DNA from: Bacteroidota bacterium
GTDB taxonomy: Bacteria > Bacteroidota > Ignavibacteria > UBA10030 > UBA8401
DNA: 64,000 nucleotides
Assembly (NCBI GenBank): GCA_027622375.1
Contig: JAQCAB010000001.1
Span: 115,317-179,316, forward strand
Reading direction: 5' to 3'
Each line of letters opens with the position of its first letter. Position 1 is the first letter of the stretch. Both the position numbers and the translations under genes were made by a program. The notes beneath the pieces are model-generated. The model was given only the letters and a program-made list of their open reading frames with translations. It had not been told where the DNA came from and did not search any database. Below are positions 8,930 through 63,600 of the stretch, piece by piece.

Positions 8930-10315
8930 TTATTTTCTTCTCCACGTATCAACTGAATACTTCCAAAGGCTTTCATCAATTGTAAATGGTTGTAAATTAA
9001 AATATGAAGTTTTTTCATCCAAATTAGTTTTTTTAAAAGTAATATTAAAAGTTTGATTGTTTATTAAGTATTGCCAAACCTCTGTTTGCATTCCAACGCA
9101 TTCAACATTCCCCGGTAAACCACAAACAATAAAAACCATTCCCATTGGCAATTTAAATCCCGCATCGCATGAACTAAAAATTAAATTTGCATCTTTAACC
9201 CGATCAAAAAATTCATTTTGTTTTGCAATACCGCCATGCTCGCGCCACCAATTTTTTAACCAATTTCTTTTTTTATCATTTGTGTCTTGAGCAAGTAAAC
9301 TATCAATTTCGTATTTGAACAAAAGATAGCGAGTAGCTAAAATTGAATCATTAACATTTAATAAATTTGGATAATTTTTATTGTTAATTGTTAATGTGCC
9401 CAAAGAGCGCAATGTATCTTTATAATTTTTAAATGAATTATAAATTATTTTTCTTGAGAATAAATATTGTTGCTCAATCGGAACAAAAAATGTATCTATT
9501 AATTGCATCCTTTCGGAATTTGGATATATCATTAACTTTTCATTTTTCAAAACTAAATTATCAAATTTTAATTGGCATAATGATGTGTCAAAATATAAGG
9601 ATGATCTTGTTGGCTCATTAATTGTTTGTAATTCCTTCCTCTTTAAAAACTCACTTACTATTTTTAATGAATCGCCAATTTTGATATTATATAATTCCTG
9701 ATAATAAATTATAGTATCAACTTCATCATTAAATTTAATATCATTTAAAAAAAGTGGCTTTAACTTCCCTTGCACGTTTTCTAAAAATAAACCATTACTT
9801 AAAGTTGGTTGGTTACTAAAATTACGAGCTTCAGTTGTAAATAGTGAGTTATAACTTAAACCCGAAATATTATCTACTAATTGAATTTGGACTTTATATT
9901 TTCCTGTATCAGCATAAAATGTTTGAAGATGATAATCTTTTACAGATTTTTGAGTTGCCTCATAATTATTTGTTCGCGGACGCTTTGAAACTTCTTTTGA
10001 AGTAATTAGTGAATCATTTTTTTTTAGATTAAAGAACAAAGAATAATCAGCTTCAAAATTTTCTCCCTGTTTTATAAATCTTATTCTATCCCAAGTTATT
10101 TGAGTATAAATATCTAACCTACTTTGAAATTTATTTATTAATGAGTCGGCGGGTTTTAAATTAATAACATGGGCTTCAAATCTTGGTTGACTTAATCGTT
10201 TAAATCTTTCAACTGAATAACAATCTGTAATTATTTTTTCGGAGGAACTACATCCAAAAAATAATATCAGAAGAAAATAATTAAAAGCTAAATAATGGGT
10301 TCGCCCTTTTATCAT
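8930..10315 (-). CDS. Lipoprotein, probably a degenerate GWxTD-domain family member
   Basis: It has a lipobox (LILFFGCSS). The C-terminal block NEFFDRVKDANLIF....GFKLPMGMVFIVCGLPGNVE....EVWQY resembles the GWxTD consensus (NExxEYYxRVxxAN...GWKTDRGxxYIxYGxPD...W.Y), but the W/T/D/R positions are substituted. Confidence 0.4.
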   Translation of the reverse strand: MIKGRTHYLAFNYFLLILFFGCSSSEKIITDCYSVERFKRLSQPRFEAHVINLKPADSLINKFQSRLDIYTQITWDRIRFIKQGENFEADYSLFFNLKKNDSLITSKEVSKRPRTNNYEATQKSVKDYHLQTFYADTGKYKVQIQLVDNISGLSYNSLFTTEARNFSNQPTLSNGLFLENVQGKLKPLFLNDIKFNDEVDTIIYYQELYNIKIGDSLKIVSEFLKRKELQTINEPTRSSLYFDTSLCQLKFDNLVLKNEKLMIYPNSERMQLIDTFFVPIEQQYLFSRKIIYNSFKNYKDTLRSLGTLTINNKNYPNLLNVNDSILATRYLLFKYEIDSLLAQDTNDKKRNWLKNWWREHGGIAKQNEFFDRVKDANLIFSSCDAGFKLPMGMVFIVCGLPGNVECVGMQTEVWQYLINNQTFNITFKKTNLDEKTSYFNLQPFTIDESLWKYSVDTWRRK

Positions 10316-15100: not shown

Positions 15101-16156
15101 TTATTTTACAATTATACTTTTTTCTTGCAATTCAATAATTTCGCCAATTTTACAAAGTGTTATCAATTGTTTAATTGAATTAGAAGATTTCACAAATTTT
15201 AAAAATTCAGTTTCTTTTTCTTTTTTGATTGTAAATAATAAACCACCATTTGTTTGTGGATCAGATATAATAGTTTGACACATTTGTGAAATAGGACTTA
15301 TCTTATTTCCATAACTTTGCCAATTTCTGTTTGAACCTCCCGGTATCGAGTTTTGTTTAATATATTTGTTTAAATCGCAAATCAGTGGGATTTTATTTTC
15401 ATAAATAATTGCTGATTTTTTTGAACCTTCACAAATTTCAATTAAATGTCCAGCCAAACCAAAACCTGTTACATCGGTCATTGAAGTTATAAAATCTAAA
15501 TTACCGAGAGTCTCACCAAAACTATTTAATTTCAACATACTTCTATGAGCAAGCAATTTATCTTTTTCAGAAATAATTCCTTTTTTTTCTGCAGTGGATA
15601 AAATACCAACACCAATCTTTTTTGTTAAATATATTTGGTCACCAATATTTGCAGTTGAATTCTTTTTTATATTTTTTAAATCACAAATTCCATTTACAGC
15701 TAAACCAAAAATCGGTTCAATAGTATCAATTGTATGCCCTCCTGCAAGTGGGATATTTATTTTTTCACAAATATTTTTTGCTCCCTCAATTACTTTTGCA
15801 GCAACTTCAACAGGGAGTTTTGAAATTGGCCAACCTAAAATTGCTAATGCAAAAATTGGTTTCCCTCCCATTGCATAAACATCACTAATTGCATTTGCCG
15901 AAGCAATTTGGCCAAATAAAAATGGATCATCCACAATTGGTGTAAAAAAATCGGTTGTTGAAATCAAAGCAGTTCCGTTTTTTAAATCGTAAACCGCCGC
16001 ATCATCTTTTGTTGAGTTACCAACAATTAATTCCTTAAATAATTTTTTTGAATTATTTTTTCCGATAATTTCTTCCAAAAGTTGCGGAGAAATTTTGCAA
16101 CCACAACCAGCACCGTGAGAAAATGATGTAAGTTTAACTTTCAGTTTCTTTAACAT
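15101..16156 (-). CDS. selD: Selenide, water dikinase (selenophosphate synthetase), Cys-type
   Basis: The N-terminal SHGAGCGCKISP is nearly identical to the E. coli SelD active-site loop. An AIR-synthase-like fold follows. The start overlaps the selU stop by 23 bp. Confidence 0.9.
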   Translation of the reverse strand: MLKKLKVKLTSFSHGAGCGCKISPQLLEEIIGKNNSKKLFKELIVGNSTKDDAAVYDLKNGTALISTTDFFTPIVDDPFLFGQIASANAISDVYAMGGKPIFALAILGWPISKLPVEVAAKVIEGAKNICEKINIPLAGGHTIDTIEPIFGLAVNGICDLKNIKKNSTANIGDQIYLTKKIGVGILSTAEKKGIISEKDKLLAHRSMLKLNSFGETLGNLDFITSMTDVTGFGLAGHLIEICEGSKKSAIIYENKIPLICDLNKYIKQNSIPGGSNRNWQSYGNKISPISQMCQTIISDPQTNGGLLFTIKKEKETEFLKFVKSSNSIKQLITLCKIGEIIELQEKSIIVK

Positions 16157-17174
16157 GTATTTTTATTGATTTTATAATTTCATCTTCAGTAACTTTTAAA
16201 TCTGAAAATATTAATTTTGTTACAAACCTTTGATCTCGAAACTGTAAACCTTTATTGTAAAGTTTATCGTAATATTTTAATGCAACATCGGCTGCCTCAT
16301 AATAATTGTCATTTTCAATAAATTGTAATGCAGATAATGTTTTTTCGCTGCCTAATTTTTTTTTCAATTTTAAGAATGAATTTGAAAGTTCGTTTTTTGA
16401 AAATCCACCATATCCCTTTACAAGTTTTTGCAATCTAACTTCTTTTGGCAAATCAACAAAAAATAATTTTGCTGAGCGAATTTGTTTCCACAAATTTTCA
16501 GGAATAACTAAACGTCCGGTTAACTTACTTTCATCTTCAATAAAAATTTGTTTTGTTTCATCTAATTTACAAAACTCAAAAACAAGTTCGTTTTCAAATT
16601 GCTCTTGTGTCGGAAAAATTTTTGTTCCAACTCCACCAAATGCAGAACCACGATGATTTGCAATTTTTTCAATATCAATAATTTGTTTACCGATTTTTTT
16701 TAATTTTTGAAGTAATTCGGTTTTACCTGTTCCTGTATATCCACCAATTATAATTAAATCAAATTTTTTGTTAAAATAATTAATTACAAAATTTCTGTAA
16801 GATTTATACCCTTTTTCTAATCTAACTGTTTGAATATTTAATTTTGCTGCAAGCCATTCAATTGATTTACTTCTCATCCCTCCACGCCAGCAATAAATAC
16901 AAATTTTATTATTTGTTTTTGCAGCATTTATTAATTCAGTTGTGAGAGAGTCTATTTTCTCAGAAACAAATCTTATTCCGGTAAGAGTTGCTTGTTCTTT
17001 CCCTTTTTTCTTGTAAAGAGTGCCAACAACCTCTCTTTCTTTATCAGTAAAAATTGGAATATTAATTGAACCCGGAATATTCCCTTTCTTAAATTCAAGT
17101 GGAGATCTTGTATCTACTATTGAATATTTTTTCCCTTTAATTAAAAAATCATTTATCAAAATTGTTTCGGGCAT
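16134..17174 (-). CDS. selU: tRNA 2-selenouridine synthase (MnmH/YbbB)
   Basis: It has an N-terminal rhodanese domain with the active-site CWRGGMRS, then a P-loop GGYTGTGKTE. Confidence 0.85.
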   Translation of the reverse strand: MPETILINDFLIKGKKYSIVDTRSPLEFKKGNIPGSINIPIFTDKEREVVGTLYKKKGKEQATLTGIRFVSEKIDSLTTELINAAKTNNKICIYCWRGGMRSKSIEWLAAKLNIQTVRLEKGYKSYRNFVINYFNKKFDLIIIGGYTGTGKTELLQKLKKIGKQIIDIEKIANHRGSAFGGVGTKIFPTQEQFENELVFEFCKLDETKQIFIEDESKLTGRLVIPENLWKQIRSAKLFFVDLPKEVRLQKLVKGYGGFSKNELSNSFLKLKKKLGSEKTLSALQFIENDNYYEAADVALKYYDKLYNKGLQFRDQRFVTKLIFSDLKVTEDEIIKSIKIHVKETES

Positions 17175-18499: not shown

Positions 18500-19006
18500 A
18501 TGAAGCTTAATAAATTTATACTTTTATTTTTACCGATTTTTCTTATTGCTTTTAATTGCAATGAAACAACCTCAAAAAATTCAAACTTACCAACTTTTTT
18601 TGTTACCGAGAATTCTAAAAAAATAACTTTTGCTGAATTCGCAAAAGATAATGTAGTTTTTGTAAATTTTTGGGCAACATGGTGCGCTCCTTGTATTGAT
18701 GAAATCCCCGATATAATTCAACTTTCAAATGAGTATAAAAATAAAAATGTTAAATTTTTGGGAATATCGATTGACGAAGGAAGTGATGCTATACAATTAG
18801 TTGAAGAATTCAAAACCCAATATAAAATCCCATACACGATTATTATAGATAAAAATCAAGAAATTCAGAAAGCTTTTGGTGGAATGCGCGGAATACCAAC
18901 TACATTTATAATTGCTAAAAATGGTAAAATTACAGATAAATTATTAGGTTTAAGATCAAAAGAAGTTTTTGCTGGTGTAATAAACAAGGCTATTAATATA
19001 AAATAA
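18500..19006 (+). CDS. TlpA/ResA-like thiol:disulfide oxidoreductase (thioredoxin fold), secreted
   Basis: It has a signal peptide and the motif WATWCAPC. Confidence 0.75.
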   Translation: MKLNKFILLFLPIFLIAFNCNETTSKNSNLPTFFVTENSKKITFAEFAKDNVVFVNFWATWCAPCIDEIPDIIQLSNEYKNKNVKFLGISIDEGSDAIQLVEEFKTQYKIPYTIIIDKNQEIQKAFGGMRGIPTTFIIAKNGKITDKLLGLRSKEVFAGVINKAINIK

Positions 19007-19043: not shown

Positions 19044-20744
19044 ATGGGAGATCAAATTGTAAAAAATCGTAAAGTTACTCCCGTTGATACTTCCAAAGAT
19101 TTAGTTTATAGGTTTGCGAATAAATCTATCCCAAATTTAGAACGAACAAAAGCTGGACTTGAACCATATTCTGGGGCTTGGGGAACTGTACAAATTCTAC
19201 ATTTCTTAAGAAGAACAACTTTTAATCCAAATCTTGATAATATTGCTTTTTTAAAAAATAAAACTTTAAAGCAATCTGTTGAATTATTATTAAACAGTTC
19301 AAGTATGCCAGAGCCTCCTGTTAAACATTATACTTTAGATGATACAGAACTTGCAATTGGTGAAACTTGGATTAACGCACCTTATAATTATGGAATTAAT
19401 AGTGGAATAATAAATAACCAACGTAAAAATTCTCTTCGCGGTTGGATGGTGGATTTAATGCTGAGCGAGGGAATTAATATTCGGGAAAAAATGACTTTGT
19501 TTTGGTCAAATCATTTTTCAACAGAACTAAATGAATATGATGATGCGCGATCTGGATATATTATTAATAAAATCTGTCGAGAAAACGCACTTGGAAATTT
19601 TAAATCCTTAGTAAAACAGATAACATTAACTCCGGCAATGCTTAGATATTTAAATGGATATTTAAATTCAGCAACTGCACCGGATGAAAATTATTCAAGA
19701 GAACTTCAAGAATTATTCACACTTGGAAAAGGTCCTGATTCAAAATATTCTGAAGAAGATGTAAAAGCAGCAGCAAAAGTTTTAACTGGATGGAGAATTA
19801 ATAATACAGTTAACCCTCAAGCTACTTTTTATGATAATTCGCGGCATGATAAAACAAATAAACAATTTTCCAGTTTTTATAATAATACCATAATAGTTGG
19901 AAAAAATTCGTCAACAGCTGGTAATGATGAACTTGATGATTTACTAAATATGATTTTTGCGCAAGAAGAAGTTTCAAAATATATTTGCCGCAGATTATAT
20001 CGTTGGTTTATTTATTATGTAATTGATAATAACGCCGAAGAAAATGTTATCAAACCACTTGCAAAAATTTTTAGAGATAATAATTATACAATTAAACCAG
20101 TTTTAGATGCACTTTTTAATAGTGCTCATTTTTTTGAGTTTGTAAATATTGGTTGTCAAATTAAAAATCCAGCGGATTTATTTACAACGCTTATAAACCA
20201 ATTTTATGTTTTGCAACCTTTAAAAATAGATGTTGTTACTTACTACACAGTTTGGGTTTATTATAATGAACTGATTACATTTATGGGACAGAAATTAATG
20301 GATCCACCTGATGTTGCAGGTTGGCCTGCTTATTGGCAATCACCTCAATATTACGAACTTTGGATAAACTCTGTTACATATCCAAAACGTGTTCAGTTTT
20401 CAGATTCGATGATTTCAAATAATGGAATTACCCGTGGTGGATTTAAAATAGTTATTGATCCATTAATTTTAGTAAACAAATTAAATAATCCTTCTAATCC
20501 AAATTCACTTGTTGCTGAATTAGTCGAATATTTATATCCTATTGAAATCTCAAACGATCAAAAAAATTTTTTAAAAAATCAAACTTTACTCTCTGGTCAA
20601 TCAAATGATATTTATTGGAGTGATGCTTGGAACGCTTACAAATCAAATCCAACAAATGCAGCAACAAAAAAAATTGTGACTGATAGATTAATGTCACTTC
20701 TAAAATATATGATGTCCGGAATGAGTGAATATCAACTTTCATAA
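19044..20744 (+). CDS. DUF1800-family protein
   Basis: 566 aa. It has the conserved pairing and overall shape of DUF1800 (HFLRRTTF, WSNHFST). It is immediately followed by DUF1501 with a 2-bp gap, the canonical gene pair. Confidence 0.6.
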   Translation: MGDQIVKNRKVTPVDTSKDLVYRFANKSIPNLERTKAGLEPYSGAWGTVQILHFLRRTTFNPNLDNIAFLKNKTLKQSVELLLNSSSMPEPPVKHYTLDDTELAIGETWINAPYNYGINSGIINNQRKNSLRGWMVDLMLSEGINIREKMTLFWSNHFSTELNEYDDARSGYIINKICRENALGNFKSLVKQITLTPAMLRYLNGYLNSATAPDENYSRELQELFTLGKGPDSKYSEEDVKAAAKVLTGWRINNTVNPQATFYDNSRHDKTNKQFSSFYNNTIIVGKNSSTAGNDELDDLLNMIFAQEEVSKYICRRLYRWFIYYVIDNNAEENVIKPLAKIFRDNNYTIKPVLDALFNSAHFFEFVNIGCQIKNPADLFTTLINQFYVLQPLKIDVVTYYTVWVYYNELITFMGQKLMDPPDVAGWPAYWQSPQYYELWINSVTYPKRVQFSDSMISNNGITRGGFKIVIDPLILVNKLNNPSNPNSLVAELVEYLYPIEISNDQKNFLKNQTLLSGQSNDIYWSDAWNAYKSNPTNAATKKIVTDRLMSLLKYMMSGMSEYQLS

Positions 20745-20746
20745 AA

Positions 20747-22330
20747 ATGAATAGAAGAGAATTTATACAAAAAACTGTTCCTGTTTCCCTGTTGCCATTT
20801 TTTATTGGTGGATATTCTGTAAAAGCATTTGGTCGTTCACCATTTTTAGAAACATTAATAAGCGCGGGAACTGAAACTGATCACGTTCTTGTTTTAATCC
20901 AACTTAATGGTGGCAATGATGGTTTAAATACAATTTTACCAATCGATCAATATAGTAATTTAGCAAATGCTCGTTCAAATATTTTAATTGCAGAAAATAA
21001 AATTTTAAAATTAACAGATAAGACTGGTATACATCCAATTATGTCTGGTTTAAAAAATTTATACGACTCTGGGAAATTTACACTTGTTCAAAGTGTTGGA
21101 TATCCAAATCCAAATTTCTCACATTTCCGCGCAACAGATATTTGGCTAACTGCAACAGATTCAAATGTTCATGAGTCATCAGGTTGGGTGGGTAGATATT
21201 TATCAGATCAAAATGAATTTCCAGATTATCCCACTGGTTATCCAAATACCGTTATGCCCGATCCACTTGCAATACAAATTGGATCCGTTGTGAGTTCCAG
21301 TTTGCAAGGATATAATTCTAGTATGGGAATGGCTATCACTGATCCTACAAAATTTTATCAGTTTATAGCCGGAACAGTTGATCCTGCACCAAACACACCT
21401 GCTGGTCATGAATTAACTTACATCAGACAAGTAGCTCAACAAACTAATTTATTTGCAGGCTCAATAAAAAATGCTGCAGCAAAAGCAAATAATAAATCAA
21501 GTTTATATCCAATGGCGCCTGATAATTCACTCGGCGATCAATTAAAAATTGTTGCGCGTTTAATTGCTGGCGGATTAAAAACAAGAATTTATATTGTAAA
21601 TATCGGTGGCTTTGATACTCATTCTGTTCAAGCGATTGCTGGCGAAACTGATACCGGAACCCATGCAAATTTATTAAAAAGATTATCTCTCGCAATTTCT
21701 GCTTTTCAAGATGATTTAAAATTATTAGGTGCTGAAGATCGTGTTGCCGGAATGACATTTTCAGAATTTGGCAGAAGAATAAAATCAAACTCAAGTGGTG
21801 GAACTGATCATGGATCAGCTGCGCCACTTTTCCTTTTTGGTAAACATGTTAAAGGTGGAATTATTGGCTCAAATCCAATTATCCCTGCAAGTGTAACTGT
21901 GAATGATAATATTCCGATGCAATATGATTTTCGATCAGTTTATGGTACAGTTCTCAAAAATTGGTTCGGTGTTTCGACAGAAGAATTAAAAAGAGTTTTA
22001 TTTAAAGATTTCCAAATTTTACCACTTTTTGCATCAACAGGAATTGCAGAAAAAAATGAATTACCTCCACATAATTTTGTTTTACATCAAAATTATCCAA
22101 ATCCATTTAATCCAAATACAAAAATAAAATTTAATTCAAGTGGCGCAAATTTGACTATTAAAATTTTTGATATGACGGGGAGAGAAATTAAAACAATTGC
22201 GGAAGGATATTATCCACAGGGCTCGCACGAAGTTAATTTCCATGCAAATGGATTACCATCGGGAATTTATTATTATCGTCTTCAATCTGGTGCTTTCACA
22301 CAAATGAAGGCGATGACTTTAATAAAATAA
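20747..22330 (+). CDS. DUF1501-family (sulfatase/alkaline-phosphatase-like) protein with a Tat signal and a T9SS C-terminal sorting domain
   Basis: It has the twin-arginine motif MNRREFIQK and the DUF1501 body (GGFDTHS, GTDHGSAAP). The last ~85 aa begin NYPNPFNPNTKIKF and end with K, the TIGR04183-type Por secretion tail. Confidence 0.7.
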   Translation: MNRREFIQKTVPVSLLPFFIGGYSVKAFGRSPFLETLISAGTETDHVLVLIQLNGGNDGLNTILPIDQYSNLANARSNILIAENKILKLTDKTGIHPIMSGLKNLYDSGKFTLVQSVGYPNPNFSHFRATDIWLTATDSNVHESSGWVGRYLSDQNEFPDYPTGYPNTVMPDPLAIQIGSVVSSSLQGYNSSMGMAITDPTKFYQFIAGTVDPAPNTPAGHELTYIRQVAQQTNLFAGSIKNAAAKANNKSSLYPMAPDNSLGDQLKIVARLIAGGLKTRIYIVNIGGFDTHSVQAIAGETDTGTHANLLKRLSLAISAFQDDLKLLGAEDRVAGMTFSEFGRRIKSNSSGGTDHGSAAPLFLFGKHVKGGIIGSNPIIPASVTVNDNIPMQYDFRSVYGTVLKNWFGVSTEELKRVLFKDFQILPLFASTGIAEKNELPPHNFVLHQNYPNPFNPNTKIKFNSSGANLTIKIFDMTGREIKTIAEGYYPQGSHEVNFHANGLPSGIYYYRLQSGAFTQMKAMTLIK

Positions 22331-23559: not shown

Positions 23560-24064
23560 TCTGCTTTCAAAATCAGATTTACGAAAAAAACTTAAATCAA
23601 TAAAATTACTAATTGTTGATGTTGATGGAGTTTTGACTGATGGCGGAATGTATTATTCTTCAACCGGCGATCAAATGAAAAAATTTAATGTTCGTGACGG
23701 AATGGGAATAATATTGTTAAAAAAAATTGGAATTAAAGTCGCAGTAATTACAAGTGAGTCAACAAAAATAATGCAATTCCGTGCTAAAAAATTAAAGATT
23801 GAGGATTTACATCAAGGATCTTTTGATAAAATCCCTGCGTTTAATAAATTATTGACAAAATATAATTTAACAACTAACCAAGCTGCTTTTATTGGCGATG
23901 ATTTAAATGATACTTCACTTTTAAAAATTGTGGGGCTTGCAATAACTCCATTAGATGGAATTCTAAAAAATAAAAATATTGCTCACTATATTACTGCTAA
24001 AAAAGGTGGAGATGGTTGCGTTAGAGAAATTTGTGATCTTTTAATTTCTGCTCAAAAAGGATAA
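23519..24064 (+). CDS. kdsC: 3-deoxy-D-manno-octulosonate 8-phosphate (KDO-8-P) phosphatase
   Basis: The HAD-IIIA motif IKLLIVDVDGVLTDGGMYY and a later GDDLNDTSLL are present. The ATG at 23519 overlaps the DegT gene by 41 bp. Confidence 0.8.
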   Translation: MLSKQLKNFSKTSSLLSKSDLRKKLKSIKLLIVDVDGVLTDGGMYYSSTGDQMKKFNVRDGMGIILLKKIGIKVAVITSESTKIMQFRAKKLKIEDLHQGSFDKIPAFNKLLTKYNLTTNQAAFIGDDLNDTSLLKIVGLAITPLDGILKNKNIAHYITAKKGGDGCVREICDLLISAQKG

Positions 24065-25635
24065 CTTAACTGTAGCGAAACTCTTCCTGCGGATTTTTTA
24101 TCAGTTCGCCATAAACAACTTAATCTGCTATCTCGATCTTTCCAAGAAAAAGCAATTCCAGCATCAGACATTTTATTATTTTTATTTAAAAATGAATTTA
24201 TAATTTCTTTTGTGGGATCCGAAACTGATTTTTCGTAATAATGTATTTCCCCAACATTAGCGAGTAAAATTAAATTCAAATTATTTATCCAAGGCATCAC
24301 CATATCAATTAAATCACCTTTGATAAAATATTCAGCATTAATTAAGATCATTCTGCTACCTTCAAATTCTTTGTAAGAATAAGCTGGCAAAGAATTAAAT
24401 CCACCTAAAAATAATTTTTTTTGTTGAATGGTGTCGCCATTTAAAATCCCAAATCTTAACCGAATTCTTAATTGATCGTTTTCCGAAATTGATTGCAATC
24501 TCCTGATATCAATTATTGTTCTATCAAATTTATAAATTTGGTTTTTACCGATTCCACCAATTTCATTTGTTACAAAAATATTCCAACCAGATGAAGTATA
24601 ATTATTATTTTTAATTGAAGAATATCCTGCAGAAAAAATTAAACTGTTAATTTGTCCTTCATCAATTAAATAATTTTCGCGATATAAATTTTTTCCAAAT
24701 AATGACCAATTTGTAGTTTTATTTAATGAAGTGTATTTATCATTTAAATAACTTGAACCAACAAAAAAACGATTTTGTGATTCTGCAAAGTGAAAATCTA
24801 AACTTAATGAAGCACCTTCTTTGTAAAAATAATCCATATAATCATCTTTTGAGAACAAAGTCGATAATGAATTATCTTCAGTAGTTATTAACCATTGATC
24901 GTCTGTTGAAACGAGTGAGTGGTATTCTGCAGAAAGTTGTAAAAATGAATTTTGAAGTTTTATATTTCTTGAAAGTCCAAATTCACCTTCCCACTTATGA
25001 AGTCCAAAAGAATAATTTACAAGATAGTGTGCGCTAAGTGGTTTAATATTTTGGGAATTTAAATTTTTTGTTTTTGTAAAACCGATTGCAACTTGTTCTA
25101 CTCTGTTAAATCTGAAGCTTCCTTCTTTTGTTAAATAATGTTCAGGAAACCAATTTTGTGGAGTAAAAATAAATTTTCTTGGAATGTTTTTTTGTGATTT
25201 AGTTAGATTTGTTATTCCCCTGTTTTCTCGAATAATACCACCAACAAATCCATCTTCAAAAATTTCACCTCGCAAAGTTGTTGCATCTCCTGTAATAACA
25301 CCATTATTTTCAATATGTATATCACCTTTTAAAACAAGAGCATCACCAATTAATGTGCCTTCAACAAAAAGATTTCCTTTTTTAATTACAACATTACCTT
25401 GAATTGTATCCTTTTCAGAAATTGTTAAAGATTGATTAAAAGTTTGAGTTGAAGTTGTTATTGATGTAATTGGATCATCAAGCAAGGGATATAAATCGTC
25501 AAGTGGTTCAAAAAATAAATAATTTTCAAAATCTTCAAATATAAAATCATCATTGATTTCTAAACTATCTTTAACTTCTTGAGCAAATATAGAAATGGGA
25601 ATTAAAATGAATATAATTAAAAATAGTTTCTTCAT
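24052..25635 (-). CDS. Hypothetical outer-membrane beta-barrel protein with N-terminal bactofilin-like beta-helix repeats
   Basis: It has a signal peptide and an N-terminal GNVVIKKGNLFVEGTLIGDALVLKGDIHIENNGVITGDATTLRGEI region of bactofilin/DUF583-like periodicity. The C-terminal half has alternating-hydrophobic strands and ends in ...SLQLSYPF (a terminal Phe beta-signal). Confidence 0.45.
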   Translation of the reverse strand: MKKLFLIIFILIPISIFAQEVKDSLEINDDFIFEDFENYLFFEPLDDLYPLLDDPITSITTSTQTFNQSLTISEKDTIQGNVVIKKGNLFVEGTLIGDALVLKGDIHIENNGVITGDATTLRGEIFEDGFVGGIIRENRGITNLTKSQKNIPRKFIFTPQNWFPEHYLTKEGSFRFNRVEQVAIGFTKTKNLNSQNIKPLSAHYLVNYSFGLHKWEGEFGLSRNIKLQNSFLQLSAEYHSLVSTDDQWLITTEDNSLSTLFSKDDYMDYFYKEGASLSLDFHFAESQNRFFVGSSYLNDKYTSLNKTTNWSLFGKNLYRENYLIDEGQINSLIFSAGYSSIKNNNYTSSGWNIFVTNEIGGIGKNQIYKFDRTIIDIRRLQSISENDQLRIRLRFGILNGDTIQQKKLFLGGFNSLPAYSYKEFEGSRMILINAEYFIKGDLIDMVMPWINNLNLILLANVGEIHYYEKSVSDPTKEIINSFLNKNNKMSDAGIAFSWKDRDSRLSCLWRTDKKSAGRVSLQLSYPF

Positions 25636-57631: not shown

Positions 57632-60600
57632 TTATTTTAAGAACAACATTTTTTTAGTTTGCACAAATCGTTTTGATTTATCAATTGCTTCGGCTTCAAT
57701 TCTGTAAAAATACATTCCGCTAGATTGGTTTGCATTCCAACTAATTGTATGATTCCCCGCTGGAAGTACATCATTAACAAGTTCTGTAATTTTTTCGCCA
57801 AGTAAATTATAAATTTCGATTTTAACTTTACTTTCAATTGGGAGTGAGTATTTAATATTTGTTTTTGGATTAAATGGATTTGGATAATTTTGTTCCAAAC
57901 TAAAATTCTTTGGCAATACAGGTTTTGCTGAATAATTTACAGATAGGTTTCCATTTTGATTAATATTTTTTGAAACAGAATAGATTTCGAAAGCGCCATT
58001 TAAATTACCTTCAAAATTATTATTTAGAATTGAGATATAAATATTTCCAAGCTCGGTTGAAGCTTCTGGCGATAAATCTTTATTTCCAAGATTTGCAAAT
58101 GCAGTTGTTGTAAGTCCATATTTAGAGTGTGAATTAAACATTGCAACAATTGATTCACCAAAATATTTTTTAAGATTTGTATTCAGCACAAACGAATCAA
58201 CTTTTACAGCATTTGTATTAAAGTTTAAAGTCAAACTCATCGCATCAAAACTTTTTACTCCACTTGCGAAAATAGGGATTGCAATTGTTCTTCCATCATT
58301 TAAAGATTTTGTTTCACCAGCAAAAATACTTTTTTCTGAAATATTGGCATTATTTTCTTTTGCAATAGTTGAGTTTACGGTTCCCCCTTTTCCATTTATA
58401 AATGCCCAGTTCCAAATTCTAACAAATAATGTTAAATCTTCAAGATCAATTAAGCCATCATTATCAATCGAAATAACCGGGAAAGTTCCCCGATATGGAG
58501 AAATATCGCCAACATTTTTATTTCCAGTTTTCCAAGCGTTACTAAAAATTGCAAGATCTTCCGTTAAAATTCTTCCATCATTTGTATAGTCAGTTAAAAT
58601 ACCAGTTGTAAATTGTTTTGCCTTTGCAACTTTTGTGCTGTCAAGATTTCCGAGAGAATCTCTATACCATAATGTGAAATAATGTTTTGTCATTGCTTTC
58701 AATTTTGGAATCCACATCGAGTCAATATCACTTGTTGGTTTAGTAATTGGGAAAACTCTTGTTGGTGTATTACTATTATATATTGATGTTTCAGTTACAT
58801 ATAATTGATATGATGTTGGAGAACTCATATCTGTTGATTTTGTCCAACTTACTGTAACACTGCCTGCAATATTTTGAGTGTTATTTACAACTGATTTTAT
58901 ACTATCAATCATTGGAGGAGTATTATCAACTGTAAATTTATTTGTTGTAAGTGGTTGACTATTTACTGCTAAACCATATGCAGTCAAACGGAATTTGGTT
59001 GTTTGCGATTCAATAAACTCACCATCACTTTTTGTGCGCCACAAAACTGAATCATTAAAATTTGAATTTGAAACTTTTGTAGCTCTTCCACCAAGTTGTG
59101 CTACTGAGAACCATGAGACACCATCATTTTTACTAAACTCTCCGACAAATGTAATTGTATCATCATTTGCAGCGTTAACCAAAAATGGAATGTAAACAGA
59201 ATCTTTTACAATTTTTTGAGGTGTTGTTACTGAAAGTAGTCTAACCGGTTTCGACGGAGTTGCTCTTTTAAGAATTTCATTTTTATCAAAATTATCTGCT
59301 CTATCTCGAGCTCGCAAAGCAAGAAAATATTTTTTATAATTTTGGAATCCAGTTATTGTTTTTGTGTGCGTAGTTGGAGAATCATCAATTATACTATCTC
59401 TTGGTGAGTTGTAATCTATTAAAGTAGAATCCGTTTGAACATAATAAATATAATATCTGAGTGGCGAATTTTTATCTGTTCCTTTAAGCCATGTAATTGT
59501 AATTGCATTACCTGTAGTTTCAGCAAATGCCGAAGTAATTCCACTAAATGCTGGTGGGTTGTTGTCTAAAGAAAATACACTTGATGCAGTTGGATTACCC
59601 GTTCCACCAATACCTATTAATGTAACTCTTAATTTTACTGAATCATTTTCAATAAACGAAAAATCTTTTTTAGAAAGCCACCCCATTAAAGTTGGAATAC
59701 TTGATATAGCAAATTTTTCTTTTGTAACTAAAATATTTGTTGTTGCAAACCAAGTTGAACCATTATTAAGTGAGTATTCCAAAACTAATGATGCAGTATC
59801 ACCCAAATCTCCATTCGGATAATATAAAATTCTTAAACTGTCTGATGCAAAATTAAATTGGTTTTTAGCTACAACAACAGAATCAACTTGTGGTTTTCTA
59901 GGAACAACTCTAAACTCCCATGCAGTTGACCACAAACTTGTGTCTGTCAAATTTCGCGCACGCATCTTCCAGTAATAAGTTAAATTTGTGGTCAAAGAAT
60001 CGTAATAATGTATTTTTAAACTTGAATCAATATCTGCAACATCACGCACACCTGTTGTAAATCCAGAAGTTTGAGAAATTTGTAAATCATATCTTGTTGC
60101 AACTTTTGCAGTATCTTTCCATTGTAAAGTATCACGAACTTTTACCCAAAGTTTTTTATCAGTCGGGCTTAGATGAATTGGTGCACCAATTAAAGTTCTA
60201 AAATTCCAAACAAAAGACCAAAAACTTATATTATTTCTATTATCACGCGATCTAACTCGCCAGAAATATTTTTTATAATTTTTAAAATTTGTAATTGCTT
60301 TTACTGTATCGCCACCTGTAATATCACCACTAAAAAAAGGAGTTAAAGTAGTATCAATTGTAGTTGCTGTGTGTGGCTGCTCATAAATTTCCATTCTGTA
60401 ATCAATTGCACCTAAAACTTTTCTCCATTTTAAAGTATTCGAAATTGCAATTCTTACTGATGAACTTTCGGGATAAACAAGAACTGGTTGTTCATTTACA
60501 TCTTCAATTAAAACTGTAACTGCTCTTTCAAAAAATTTTGCAGGTGTGCCAGAATCTGTGGTTCGTATTCTGATTGTATATTGATTTTTGGCTTCGTAAT

Positions 60601-63600
60601 TATAACTTTCTTTTGCTTTAAGTTTGTCATTTAAAATTTGGAAAGAAGCATTATCATCGGAACCTAATCCTGTTACAAGTGTGTATGTAAAAGATTGATT
60701 TGCATCTTCATCTGTTGTTGATAAAGTTCCGATTACTATATCATCTGGTTCATTTTCTGCAATTGATGAATCACTTATTGTTATCCAAGTTGGTGTGTCA
60801 TTTACATTATCAATTGTAATCGGGATTGCTCTATCAAAAGTTTTTCCCGGTGTGCCGTTATCTGTTGTGCGAATTCGAACAGTGTAACTACTTTTTACTT
60901 CAAAATTAAAAACTTCGTTTGTTTTAAGTTGATCACCTGCAATCGTAAATTTTGCATTATCATCAGCACCTGTCCCTGCAACAAAAGTGTAAGTATGTGT
61001 TTGCCCAACATCTGCATCGGTTGTTGATAATATTCCAACTTTCGTTCCAACAACTTCATTTTCTGCAACTGTTGAGTCATCTATCGCAATCCAAGTTGGA
61101 GCATCATTATCATTTTCAATTACAACTGTTATTGCTCTTTCAAAAAATTTTGCTGGTGTTCCAGAATCTGTTGTACGAACACGAATTGTATAATTTGATT
61201 TTACTTCGTAATCAAAAACAGCATTCGATTTTAACTGATCACCAGTTATTGTGAATGAAGAATTATTATCCGAGCCTGTGCCTGTTACAAAAGTATATGT
61301 GTAACTTTGACCAGCATCTTCATCTGTTGAACTCAATGTTCCGATTGTTGTGTTTGTCGGTAAATTTTCAAGTATTGTAGAATCATTAATTGCAATATTT
61401 GTTGGTGTGTCATTTGCATCCTTAATTGTAATTGGGATAATTCTTTGGAATGATAAAGCTCCCTGGTCTAAAGTTTGTACCCGAATTGTATAACTTGATT
61501 TTACTTCGTAATTGTAAATTGCATTTGATTTAAGCTTATCTCCAACAATTTGGAAAGATGCGTTATCGTTTGACCCAGCACCGGAAACTAATGAATAAGT
61601 AAAATTAACATCTCCATCAGGATCAGTTGAGCTGAGAGTTCCAATATCAGTTCCTGTTGCTAAATTTTCAAAAATTGTTGAGTCGCTGATTGCAACATAA
61701 GTGGGCGCATCATTTACAGAATTAATTGTAACATTAAAAGTTTTTTCAACTACATCGTCTCCACTATTTGCTGTTCCACCATCATCAGTAACTCTTACTG
61801 TAAGAACTATGGGGCTAATTCCTGAAGTATTTTTATTTGCAACTGGAGAAAATGTTAAAGTGCCAGTTGCATTCGGACTTGTGTACGAAGTGATAGTTGG
61901 AGTTGGTATTATTGTGGTTGTATTTGATGTAGCTGAAACAATTAAAAATTGCCCAACTTCATCTGAACCGCCACCAACACCAATGCCAGCTAAATTTACA
62001 GTTTGTGTTACAGCATCTTCATCAATTGTTATATCAACTGGTTTTGTTAAAGTTGGCTCATCATTTACTGCAGTAACAGTAATTGTAAAAGTTATTGGCG
62101 CATCAGAAGTTGAATTGTCACCACCATTTGCAGTCCCACCATTATCATCTAAATATGCAGTTATGGTTGCAGAGCCATTTTTATTTAAATCTGGTCTAAA
62201 AGTTAAATCGCCAGTTGCCGAAATTGCAGGTTGCTCAACAAACAATGCTGTATTGGTATTTGTGGAAATTACAAAATTTAGTGTTTGTAAATTTTCATTT
62301 GTTATACTTGAACTCGTTGGTCCCTTCTTTATATTTGTTGCCCAACTCGAAATTGTTTGAGTTGTAACATCTTCAAGAACTGTTTGGTTTGCACCTTTTG
62401 TAAAACTTGGTGAATCGTTTACTGGAGTTATTGTTACTTGAAATGTTTTTGAAATTGAACTATTTGTTGAACCACCATCACTAACTGTTACTGTAATTGT
62501 AATTGTCCCATTTTGATCTGCTTGCGGAGTTAAAGTTAAACTTCCTGTATTATTTGCACTTGTGTATATTACTGTTGGGTTTGGAATAACTGCTGCATCA
62601 CTTGACGTTGCAGTAACGGATAAAGTTTGTGTTTCGTTTGCTGCACCAGATCCAATTCCACTTAAATTTACAGTTATATTTCCACCTGCATCTTCCAAAA
62701 CCGCAGTCGGGTTTGAAATATCTGCAAGTGTCGGCTGATCATTTACAGAAGTTACAGTTACATTTATTGTAATAACTTTTGTGTCATCTCCACTATTTGC
62801 TGTTCCACCATTATCAGTGAGTGTAACAGTTAAAACAACTGGTGTGCCAGAAGTAAATTGATCTGCAGCCGGAGTAAAATTAATTGTTCCTGTCGGATTT
62901 GCACTTGCATAAGAAATTGTTGGTGTTGGAATTATATTTGTGTTGCTCGAAGTTATTGATAGAGCCAGGGTTTGACTATTTTCATCTGTTCCTCCTCCTG
63001 CACCAATTCCAGATAAAGAGATGGTTTGTGCCGATGCATCTTCATCAACAGAAATATCAGATACGGAATTTATTATTGGTTCATCATTTACGCCAGTAAC
63101 TGTTATTGTAAAACTTTTTGGATCGTCACTTGTATTATCTACACCACTATTTGCAGTTCCACCATCATCTTGTAAGTAAACCGTTACTGTTGCAACACCA
63201 ACTTTGTTTGTTGCAGTAGTATAAGTTAAAGTCCCACTTGCATCAATTACAGGTCCTGCAGAAAAAAGTGCAGTGTTAGTATTATTTTGAATTACAAAAG
63301 ATAGAATTTGAGATGCTTCATTAGTTCCTTTATTTAAATTTGTTGCCCAACTTACACTTTGCCCACCAGCATCTTCTAAGATAGTTTGGGCACCGCCAGC
63401 AGTATAACTTGGTATATCATTAACATTTGTAACTGTAACTGTAAATGTTTTTGTGATTGCATCATCGCCACTATTTGCAGTTCCACCATTATCTGTAACT
63501 GTAACAGAAATTGTAACAGTACCATATTGATTTGCATTTGGTGTATAAGCAAGTGAGCCAGTTGTTGCCGCGCTATTATATGTTACTGTTGGATCAGGTA

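Follow-up and report, generated by a model that had tools for sequence, protein, structure and literature searches.

Twin-arginine signal peptides and type IX secretion tails are co-conserved in a widespread DUF1501 family of Bacteroidota and allied lineages

Introduction

Type IX secretion system (T9SS) substrates use the Sec machinery, and the T9SS itself moves folded proteins (reviewed in PMC9251779). The abstract of a paper of November 2025 (PMC12618676) likewise gives T9SS substrates a Sec-dependent signal peptide, and the cargo definition of T9GPred combines the presence of a Sec signal with the absence of a twin-arginine translocation (Tat) signal. Separately from this work, Tat motifs on DUF1501 proteins and the operon that joins DUF1800 to DUF1501 have already been published (PMC3542564, 2012; PMC5122149, 2016). 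Here, we describe a DUF1800/DUF1501 gene pair at positions 19044-22330 (+) of a 64,000-nucleotide stretch of contig JAQCAB010000001.1 (assembly GCA_027622375.1), from a member of the Bacteroidota; the whole of this stretch is referred to as the window. The DUF1501 protein of the pair carries both a Tat-type signal peptide and a T9SS C-terminal sorting domain.

A preliminary description of the locus had drawn attention to this combination and had stated that T9SS cargo is normally Sec-exported, a statement on which the three T9SS sources named above agree. No experimental description of Tat-dependent T9SS cargo was found in the searchable portion of the literature on T9SS and Tat, and no mention of DUF1501 together with the T9SS was found in the literature searched.

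Results

The DUF1501 protein carries a conserved twin-arginine N-terminus

The DUF1501 gene (20747-22330, +) encodes a protein of 527 aa, and both targeting signals on this protein are real and co-conserved. Residues 1-29 (20747-20833, +) have the form of a Tat-type signal peptide, reading MNRREFIQK TVPVSLLPFFIGGYSV K AFG and then R, as judged by the TatP regular expression (RR.[FGAVML][LITMVF]), by conservation and by composition. Cleavage would probably follow A-F-G, a placement that is ours and not a predictor call. The start MNRREFIQK matches the TatP expression, and the twin-arginine motif NRREFIQK named in the preliminary description is indeed present; no other open reading frame (ORF) of the window has an RR-type N-terminus.

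The motif is kept in 112 of the 120 best DUF1501 homologues, which share 56-100% identity with the window protein. Most of the exceptions were evidently truncated gene starts, and two were R-K variants. In the 110 aligned sequences used for position counts, the first arginine and the phenylalanine at +3 were invariant (110/110 each), the second arginine was found in 108 and L or I in 104, and the next two positions were K or R. The family consensus is K-R-R-D-F-[LI]-[KR]-[RK], to which the window copy corresponds as N-R-R-E-F-I-Q-K; both agree with the general Tat consensus S/T-R-R-x-F-L-K of the n-region.

Low hydrophobicity of the h-region, the Gly/Pro content and a basic c-region residue are textbook distinctions between Tat and Sec signals, the basic residue being a Sec-avoidance feature. 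All three were seen here. With the h-region represented by the most hydrophobic 10-residue stretch on the Kyte-Doolittle scale, the DUF1501 family scored 2.01 +/- 0.26, as against 2.99 +/- 0.34 for a reference set of 50 evident Sec leaders from other T9SS-tailed ORFs of the same comparison loci (Mann-Whitney p=2.5e-23); the window protein scored 2.2. The Gly+Pro fraction was 0.20 in the DUF1501 signals versus 0.07 in the Sec leaders. A basic residue stood directly ahead of the A-x-G site in 87/114 DUF1501 homologues, and the window copy has K before A-F-G.

These features have to be set against the alternative that the N-terminus works as a Sec signal, or is promiscuously routed, in which case the arginine pair would be an inherited trait and the protein an ordinary cargo of Sec and then T9SS. 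Such a reading would account for the silence of the generic Tat hidden Markov models (HMMs) TIGR01409 and PF10518, which gave no match on the isolated window N-terminus even at E<=10; one relative reached 20.4 bits, below the cut-off of 22.7. It would also sit well with the few clade members that have KR or RK in place of RR, with the absence of TatA and TatC genes from the 64-kb window, and with the T9GPred collection of 102 experimentally verified T9SS cargo proteins, of which none is reported to have a Tat signal. A relic, however, would not be expected to hold R-R-x-F-[LI] at 98-100% when the homologues compared range from 56 to 100% identity, and the h-region hydrophobicity and Gly/Pro content of the DUF1501 signals differ sharply from those of the Sec leaders of neighbouring T9SS cargo. 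The frequent basic residue in the c-region and the existence of a multicopper oxidase family with the same pairing of signals, described below, likewise argue against Sec export, which we regard as unlikely.

In loci L026, L028, L029, L031 and L032, from Rhodothermales and Balneolaceae, the longest DUF1501 ORF has a His/Cys/Glu-rich extension (for example, ...CLEHGCAHTDEHSQWSRRDFLS) before the RR or RK. This extension may be a leader that binds metal, or it may result from a start that was called wrongly.

The same protein ends in a T9SS sorting domain

At the other end of the protein, residues 450-521 of 527 scored 39.3 bits with PF18962, for which the cut-off is 27, and 40.9 bits with TIGR04183, for which it is 23. 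The T9SS tail claimed in the preliminary description passed both curated models, and the failure at threshold that would have told against it did not occur. The type-A sorting domain spans residues 450-527 (22094-22327, +), starts with QNYPNPFNP and ends with MTLIK. It is preceded by a disordered linker at about residues 432-449 (22040-22093, +), in which the predicted local distance difference test (pLDDT) score fell below 50 at residues 432-441. AlphaFold2 (mean pLDDT 80) predicted the tail as an independent beta-sandwich of six strands over residues 457-525, with a pLDDT of about 90. When the family profile was compared with the PDB, the sequence matches were 8glj_D at E=0.004, deposited as a 'Por secretion system C-terminal sorting domain-containing protein', 8glk_D at E=0.047, deposited as 'Endonuclease I', and the tail of a GH167 glycoside hydrolase, and there were no others.

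A second protein of the window, a cadherin-repeat giant of more than 1688 aa (57632-62698, -), has a QNYPNPFNP-type tail that scored 37.9 bits; its open frame runs on to the window end, and its N-terminus lies beyond the window. Because this giant carries the same type of tail, the organism uses the T9SS tail on other proteins too, which is an indirect sign of T9SS machinery in its genome.

A beta-sandwich of this kind need not serve secretion, and the DUF1501 protein might instead be a periplasmic enzyme with an Ig-like binding or structural module at its C-terminus. In keeping with that idea, the tail is weakly similar to FlgD_ig (20.2 bits, below the cut-off), none of the T9SS machinery genes SprA, PorV, PorU and GldKLMN is found within the 64-kb window, and about 18% of the nearest clusters have no tail, so that the enzyme can evidently work without one. 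It is hard to reconcile with the passing of both PF18962 and TIGR04183, with a tail that is strictly C-terminal and follows a disordered linker, and with the confinement of the tail to lineages known for T9SS-type tails and its absence from relatives in other phyla. The shared tail of the cadherin-repeat giant, and the lectin and PA14 modules of some relatives, which suggest an extracellular location, speak for secretion as well. A periplasmic end point seems improbable to us.

Dual targeting is the ordinary state of a large clade

Precomputed annotation placed PF18962 on 117 of the 120 closest DUF1501 homologues. The distribution of the tail was examined independently of the tail itself in a census for which only the catalytic part (residues 1-445) served as the query, against 1.84 billion representatives clustered at 50% identity; it returned 11,439 clusters at E<=1e-3, 1,719 of them at E<=1e-30. 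The details of the census cover the best 150 representatives (38-61% identity). The strict RR motif was present in 126 of these. The T9SS tail, whose frequency on DUF1501 proteins had been raised as a question in the preliminary description, was present in at least 123 of these 150 nearest clusters (82%), 112 of them recognized by a family-built HMM and 11 more by PF18962. The remainder included fragments as well as proteins of about 420 aa that have no tail.

Among species-representative genomes, the full-length architecture with the tail was found in Pedobacter lithocola, Chitinophagaceae, Saprospiraceae, Lewinellaceae, Crocinitomicaceae, Cytophagales, Runella and Paludibacter, and also in Rhodothermales, Balneolaceae and one Marinimicrobia metagenome-assembled genome (MAG). 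Relatives from Abditibacteriaceae, Armatimonadales, Leucothrix and Acidimicrobiia have kept the RR signal, and their proteins end at about residue 415-430 without the tail. In these comparisons, the tail occurs only in lineages known for T9SS-type tails and is missing from relatives in other phyla. The same 528-aa protein stands under RefSeq accessions in many cultured Pedobacter, and one UniRef entry is already titled 'Secretion system C-terminal sorting domain-containing protein'. As far as these comparisons reach, the window copy is a typical representative of a large, conserved and putatively dual-targeted clade that extends across T9SS-bearing Bacteroidota and allied lineages of the Fibrobacteres-Chlorobi-Bacteroidetes (FCB) group.

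The preliminary description had called the route unusual. That judgement holds against the searchable literature, in which T9SS cargo is Sec-exported and T9GPred excludes Tat signals, but not in sequence space, where at least 82% of the 150 clusters are tailed and the architecture has already been annotated.

A multicopper oxidase family shows the same pairing

Twin-arginine leaders were otherwise rare among tailed proteins. In the comparison loci, 73 of the 74 other T9SS-tailed ORFs had no RR-type signal, and most had Sec-type MKK leaders. The sole exception, from an Ignavibacteria MAG (L057:4549-6297, +, JBGAGG010000001.1), encodes a three-domain multicopper oxidase with the RR leader MKRREMIKSALGLGALLSVPG and a PF18962 tail. 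Multicopper oxidases are classic Tat substrates. PF18962 was found in 118 of the 120 closest homologues of this oxidase, most of which come from Ignavibacteria MAGs, and an RR motif lay within the first 15 residues in 72 of them; 45 further homologues begin at the Met five codons downstream, just after the motif, which represents an ambiguity of start calling. By these criteria, at least two families with twin-arginine leaders, the DUF1501 proteins and the multicopper oxidases, have gained T9SS tails, and the oxidases too would be candidates for targeting by Tat and T9SS.

The catalytic domain resembles the alkaline phosphatase superfamily

Between the two signals lies the DUF1501 catalytic domain (about residues 30-431; 20834-22039, +), which was predicted to have the alpha/beta core fold of the alkaline phosphatase superfamily and which contains the invariant motifs NGGNDG (D58), SHFR (S125/H126), GFDTH (D290/H292) and GTDHG (D354/H355). 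S125 sits just ahead of a predicted helix at residues 126-135. Fold comparison gave values of 17.5 for ENPP6, 17.4 for both PhoK and the Xanthomonas NPP, 16.8 for PafA and about 16 for sulfatases, all at only 9-15% identity, and Foldseek concurred. On the predicted structure, the enzyme is a member of the alkaline phosphatase superfamily whose nearest counterparts are the NPP and PafA phosphoesterases; an alignment of the family profile with Escherichia coli PhoA had a probability of 0.1. By analogy with NPP and alkaline phosphatase enzymes, the enzyme may be proposed to have Ser as its nucleophile and a metal site that is possibly bimetallic.

The preliminary description had spoken of a sulfatase-superfamily protein. 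The superfamily fold stands, but the word 'sulfatase' goes too far: the formylglycine motif [CS]-x-P-x-R is absent from the window protein and from all 120 homologues (0/120), in which S-H-F-R is conserved instead. Identity as a classical formylglycine sulfatase (S1) was rejected because of the absence of this motif. The mature protein contains no Cys and therefore needs no periplasmic disulphide formation, which agrees with cytoplasmic folding without being evidence of it. Two relatives, P0391 (817 aa) and P0479 (686 aa), have additional PA14 and/or ricin-B lectin modules, which stand between the catalytic domain and the T9SS tail. These inserts suggest an extracellular, glycan-directed activity and also hint at a carbohydrate substrate.

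DUF1800 is a constant neighbour without a signal peptide

The DUF1800 gene (19044-20744, +) encodes 566 aa. Directly upstream of DUF1501 in all 39 comparison loci that had upstream sequence (39/39), DUF1800 was separated from it by gaps of -37 to 235 nt, and one apparent gap of 785 nt was a split ORF. No DUF1800-DUF1501 fusion protein was found. The window protein was predicted to be all-alpha (pLDDT 86.8), with a disordered leader of about 45 aa ahead of a conserved HLLRR core and no N-terminal signal peptide. Among solved structures, no relative of DUF1800 was found. A hydrophobic N-terminal segment was absent from the window copy, from 119 of 120 homologues and from the loci of Bacteroidota, Rhodothermota, Armatimonadota, Proteobacteria and Actinobacteria. 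The preliminary description had proposed a surface-exposed hydrolase 'plus a partner'; the surface partner is an overstatement, as DUF1800 had no signal peptide in any phylum examined.

Most DUF1800 homologues (92/120; P0125-P0240, loci L003-L023) start with M-[DN]-R-R-x-F-L and have no h-region after it. The RR-bearing leader is about 44 aa long, polar and predicted to be disordered; the window copy has no RR motif. For an RR motif that lacks an h-region, we are aware of no described function, nor do we know such a motif from classical Tat hitchhikers.

DUF1800 has no signal of its own and is encoded beside DUF1501, as would be expected of a protein that 'hitchhikes' through Tat on a signal-bearing partner. 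From the sequences, the one-sided Tat signal of the pair would fit hitchhiker logic and a cytoplasmic maturation factor equally well. The orphan RR motif on DUF1800 inclines us slightly towards hitchhiking. The other interpretation, which concerns the partner only, makes DUF1800 a never-exported maturation factor or signal-peptide-binding chaperone for DUF1501, comparable to TorD/DmsD or to sulfatase-maturating enzymes. We consider it possible, if tentative. It agrees with the lack of a signal peptide in every phylum and with the tight coupling of the two genes; Tat export of DUF1501 would itself imply a step of folding or maturation in the cytoplasm, and the difficulty of bringing a heterodimer through the T9SS would not arise. 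Less easily explained in this way are the size of DUF1800 (450-570 aa), which exceeds that of the catalytic domain of its presumed client, its many invariant polar residues, which resemble those of an enzyme, and the M-[DN]-R-R-x-F-L start, for which a protein confined to the cytoplasm would have no obvious need. DUF1800 proteins have, moreover, been found in an Entotheonella membrane-vesicle fraction, though alongside cytoplasmic chaperones (PMC12981691).

Organization of the gene pair and its surroundings

The preliminary description had presented a DUF1800/DUF1501 pair with 2 bp between the genes, and the sequence bears this out in full, with both ORFs found at the expected coordinates. The intergenic spacer (20745-20746, +), read directly from the sequence, is 2 nt long, and the junction reads TCA TAA AA ATG, which suggests that translation of the two genes is coupled. 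There is no terminator between them, and scans for sigma-70 promoters and terminators gave matches at chance level only. Both families were recognized by their Pfam HMMs, DUF1800 (PF08811) at 294.4 bits over residues 53-514 (gathering cut-off 26.1) and DUF1501 (PF07394) at 65.5 bits over residues 49-409 (gathering cut-off 27).

The window is AT-rich (about 30% GC) and is ordinary chromosomal core. Its gene content includes a dcw cell-division cluster, S-adenosylmethionine synthetase, S-adenosylhomocysteine hydrolase, an electron transfer flavoprotein, SelD, SelU, LptE and a heptosyltransferase, the last two of which indicate that the organism is diderm. Deposited MAG proteins under the label 'Bacteroidetes bacterium' match the DUF1800 and DUF1501 proteins at 100% identity in each case, and the nearest relatives of both are labelled Ignavibacteria or Bacteroidota. 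The same gene neighbourhood was present in an independent Logan assembly (SRR2027830, 9-kb contig).

On the same strand, 37 nt upstream of the pair, lies a TlpA-like AhpC/TSA-redoxin gene (18500-19006, +) whose product has a WCAPC motif and a hydrophobic leader. It was rejected as a third member of the operon because it is not kept beside the pair in other loci, and it is probably unrelated to DUF1800 and DUF1501. Further upstream, adjoining genes at 15101-17174 (-) have selenophosphate synthetase (AIRS domains) and tRNA 2-selenouridine synthase content, the latter gene being annotated in Logan as Rhodanese plus AAA_SelU, and this content suggests that the organism uses selenium. Two further genes encode uncharacterized proteins of envelope type: a GWxTD-domain protein (8930-10315, -) and a 527-aa protein (24052-25635, -) whose matches to DUF5686 and bactofilin were sub-threshold only.

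Discussion

The dual targeting of DUF1501 proteins is, as far as sequences can tell, a clade-wide and already annotated architecture and not a peculiarity of the window locus, and it would amount to a two-step secretion in which Tat, and not Sec, feeds the T9SS. It reads as a widespread Tat-to-T9SS route that the searchable literature does not describe. We consider it most likely, with a probability of roughly 0.7, that a folded enzyme of the alkaline phosphatase superfamily is exported by Tat and then secreted by the T9SS. In the model that we favour, the DUF1501 protein would be a metal-dependent hydrolase or transferase of phospho- or sulfo-esters that folds in the cytoplasm, probably gaining its metal there, and that crosses the inner membrane by Tat by virtue of its twin-arginine signal. 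In the periplasm, the type-A domain would be recognized by the T9SS, which would carry the enzyme across the outer membrane for attachment to the surface or release. Such an order of events is mechanistically plausible because the T9SS transports folded proteins (PMC9251779).

In the same model, DUF1800 would be an obligate, translationally coupled partner that, in the reading we prefer, binds DUF1501 in the cytoplasm and is co-exported through Tat as a hitchhiker, with a cytoplasmic role in maturation or as a chaperone nearly as likely. A bolder extension is that DUF1800 is a signal-less passenger throughout, assembling with DUF1501 in the cytoplasm, hitchhiking through Tat and then passing the T9SS still bound by way of the DUF1501 tail. 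We think this extension quite unlikely. If it held, the T9SS would have its first hetero-oligomeric, piggy-back cargo, and the orphan RR on many DUF1800 leaders would serve as a second, functional point of contact with the Tat receptor.

Several points weigh against the favoured model. In addition to the silent Tat models, the KR/RK variants, the T9GPred collection and the lack of Tat and T9SS machinery genes in the window, no experimental secretome or proteomic data for the DUF1501 family were found in the literature, and the assignment of catalytic residues comes from invariant columns only. If DUF1800 does hitchhike, we know of no precedent for the fate of a DUF1800-DUF1501 heterodimer at the T9SS.

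Should Tat-exported enzymes prove to be genuine T9SS cargo, the accepted definition of such cargo as a Sec signal plus a C-terminal domain would be too narrow, and pipelines that filter out Tat signals would systematically be missing whole families, at least two of them being the DUF1501 proteins and the multicopper oxidases. The T9SS would then accept proteins that had been folded, and possibly loaded with metal, in the cytoplasm. The widespread and unexplained DUF1800/DUF1501 pair would gain both a cellular address and a subunit logic. As cultured Pedobacter species share the architecture, for example P. lithocola CCM 8691 and Pedobacter sp. Leaf194, with protein WP_378986047.1 and its relatives, the question is open to direct testing.

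Comparison with described systems places the DUF1501 family between several of them. Canonical type-A cargo of the T9SS, such as the gingipains and the cargo of Flavobacterium johnsoniae, shares with it the C-terminal beta-sandwich tail of about 75 aa that follows a linker and scores above thresholds. That cargo has a Sec signal peptide, however, whereas the N-terminus of the DUF1501 protein is of the twin-arginine type and conserved across the family, so that T9GPred rules would reject the protein. The catalytic domain resembles NPP-type phosphodiesterases and the alkaline phosphatases PafA and PhoK in predicted fold, but is only 9-15% identical to them and has no HMM-level similarity. The DUF1800/DUF1501 pairs of Proteobacteria and the DUF1501 proteins of Planctomycetes and Verrucomicrobia (PMC5122149, PMC3542564) belong to the same Pfam families and have the same gene order and the same Tat motif on DUF1501. 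In contrast to the FCB clade, which adds the T9SS tail and at times PA14 or ricin-B modules, these non-FCB proteins end at about residue 415-430 without a tail (L039-L042).

With regard to the pair as a whole, Tat hitchhiker hetero-oligomers, such as the small and large subunits of hydrogenases and DmsAB, are similarly encoded by adjacent genes with a twin-arginine signal on one partner only; unlike the classical hitchhikers, many DUF1800 proteins have retained an RR motif that no h-region follows, and the DUF1800-DUF1501 complex is putative. A parallel to the proposed route is offered by the Tat-dependent substrates of type II secretion, such as the phospholipases PlcH and PlcN of Pseudomonas aeruginosa (compare PMC4899797), in which a folded, Tat-exported enzyme is likewise taken up from the periplasm by an outer-membrane machine for folded cargo. 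The type II route depends on a conformational signal, whereas the second step of DUF1501 secretion, here recognized from sequence, would proceed through the T9SS by way of a discrete C-terminal domain.

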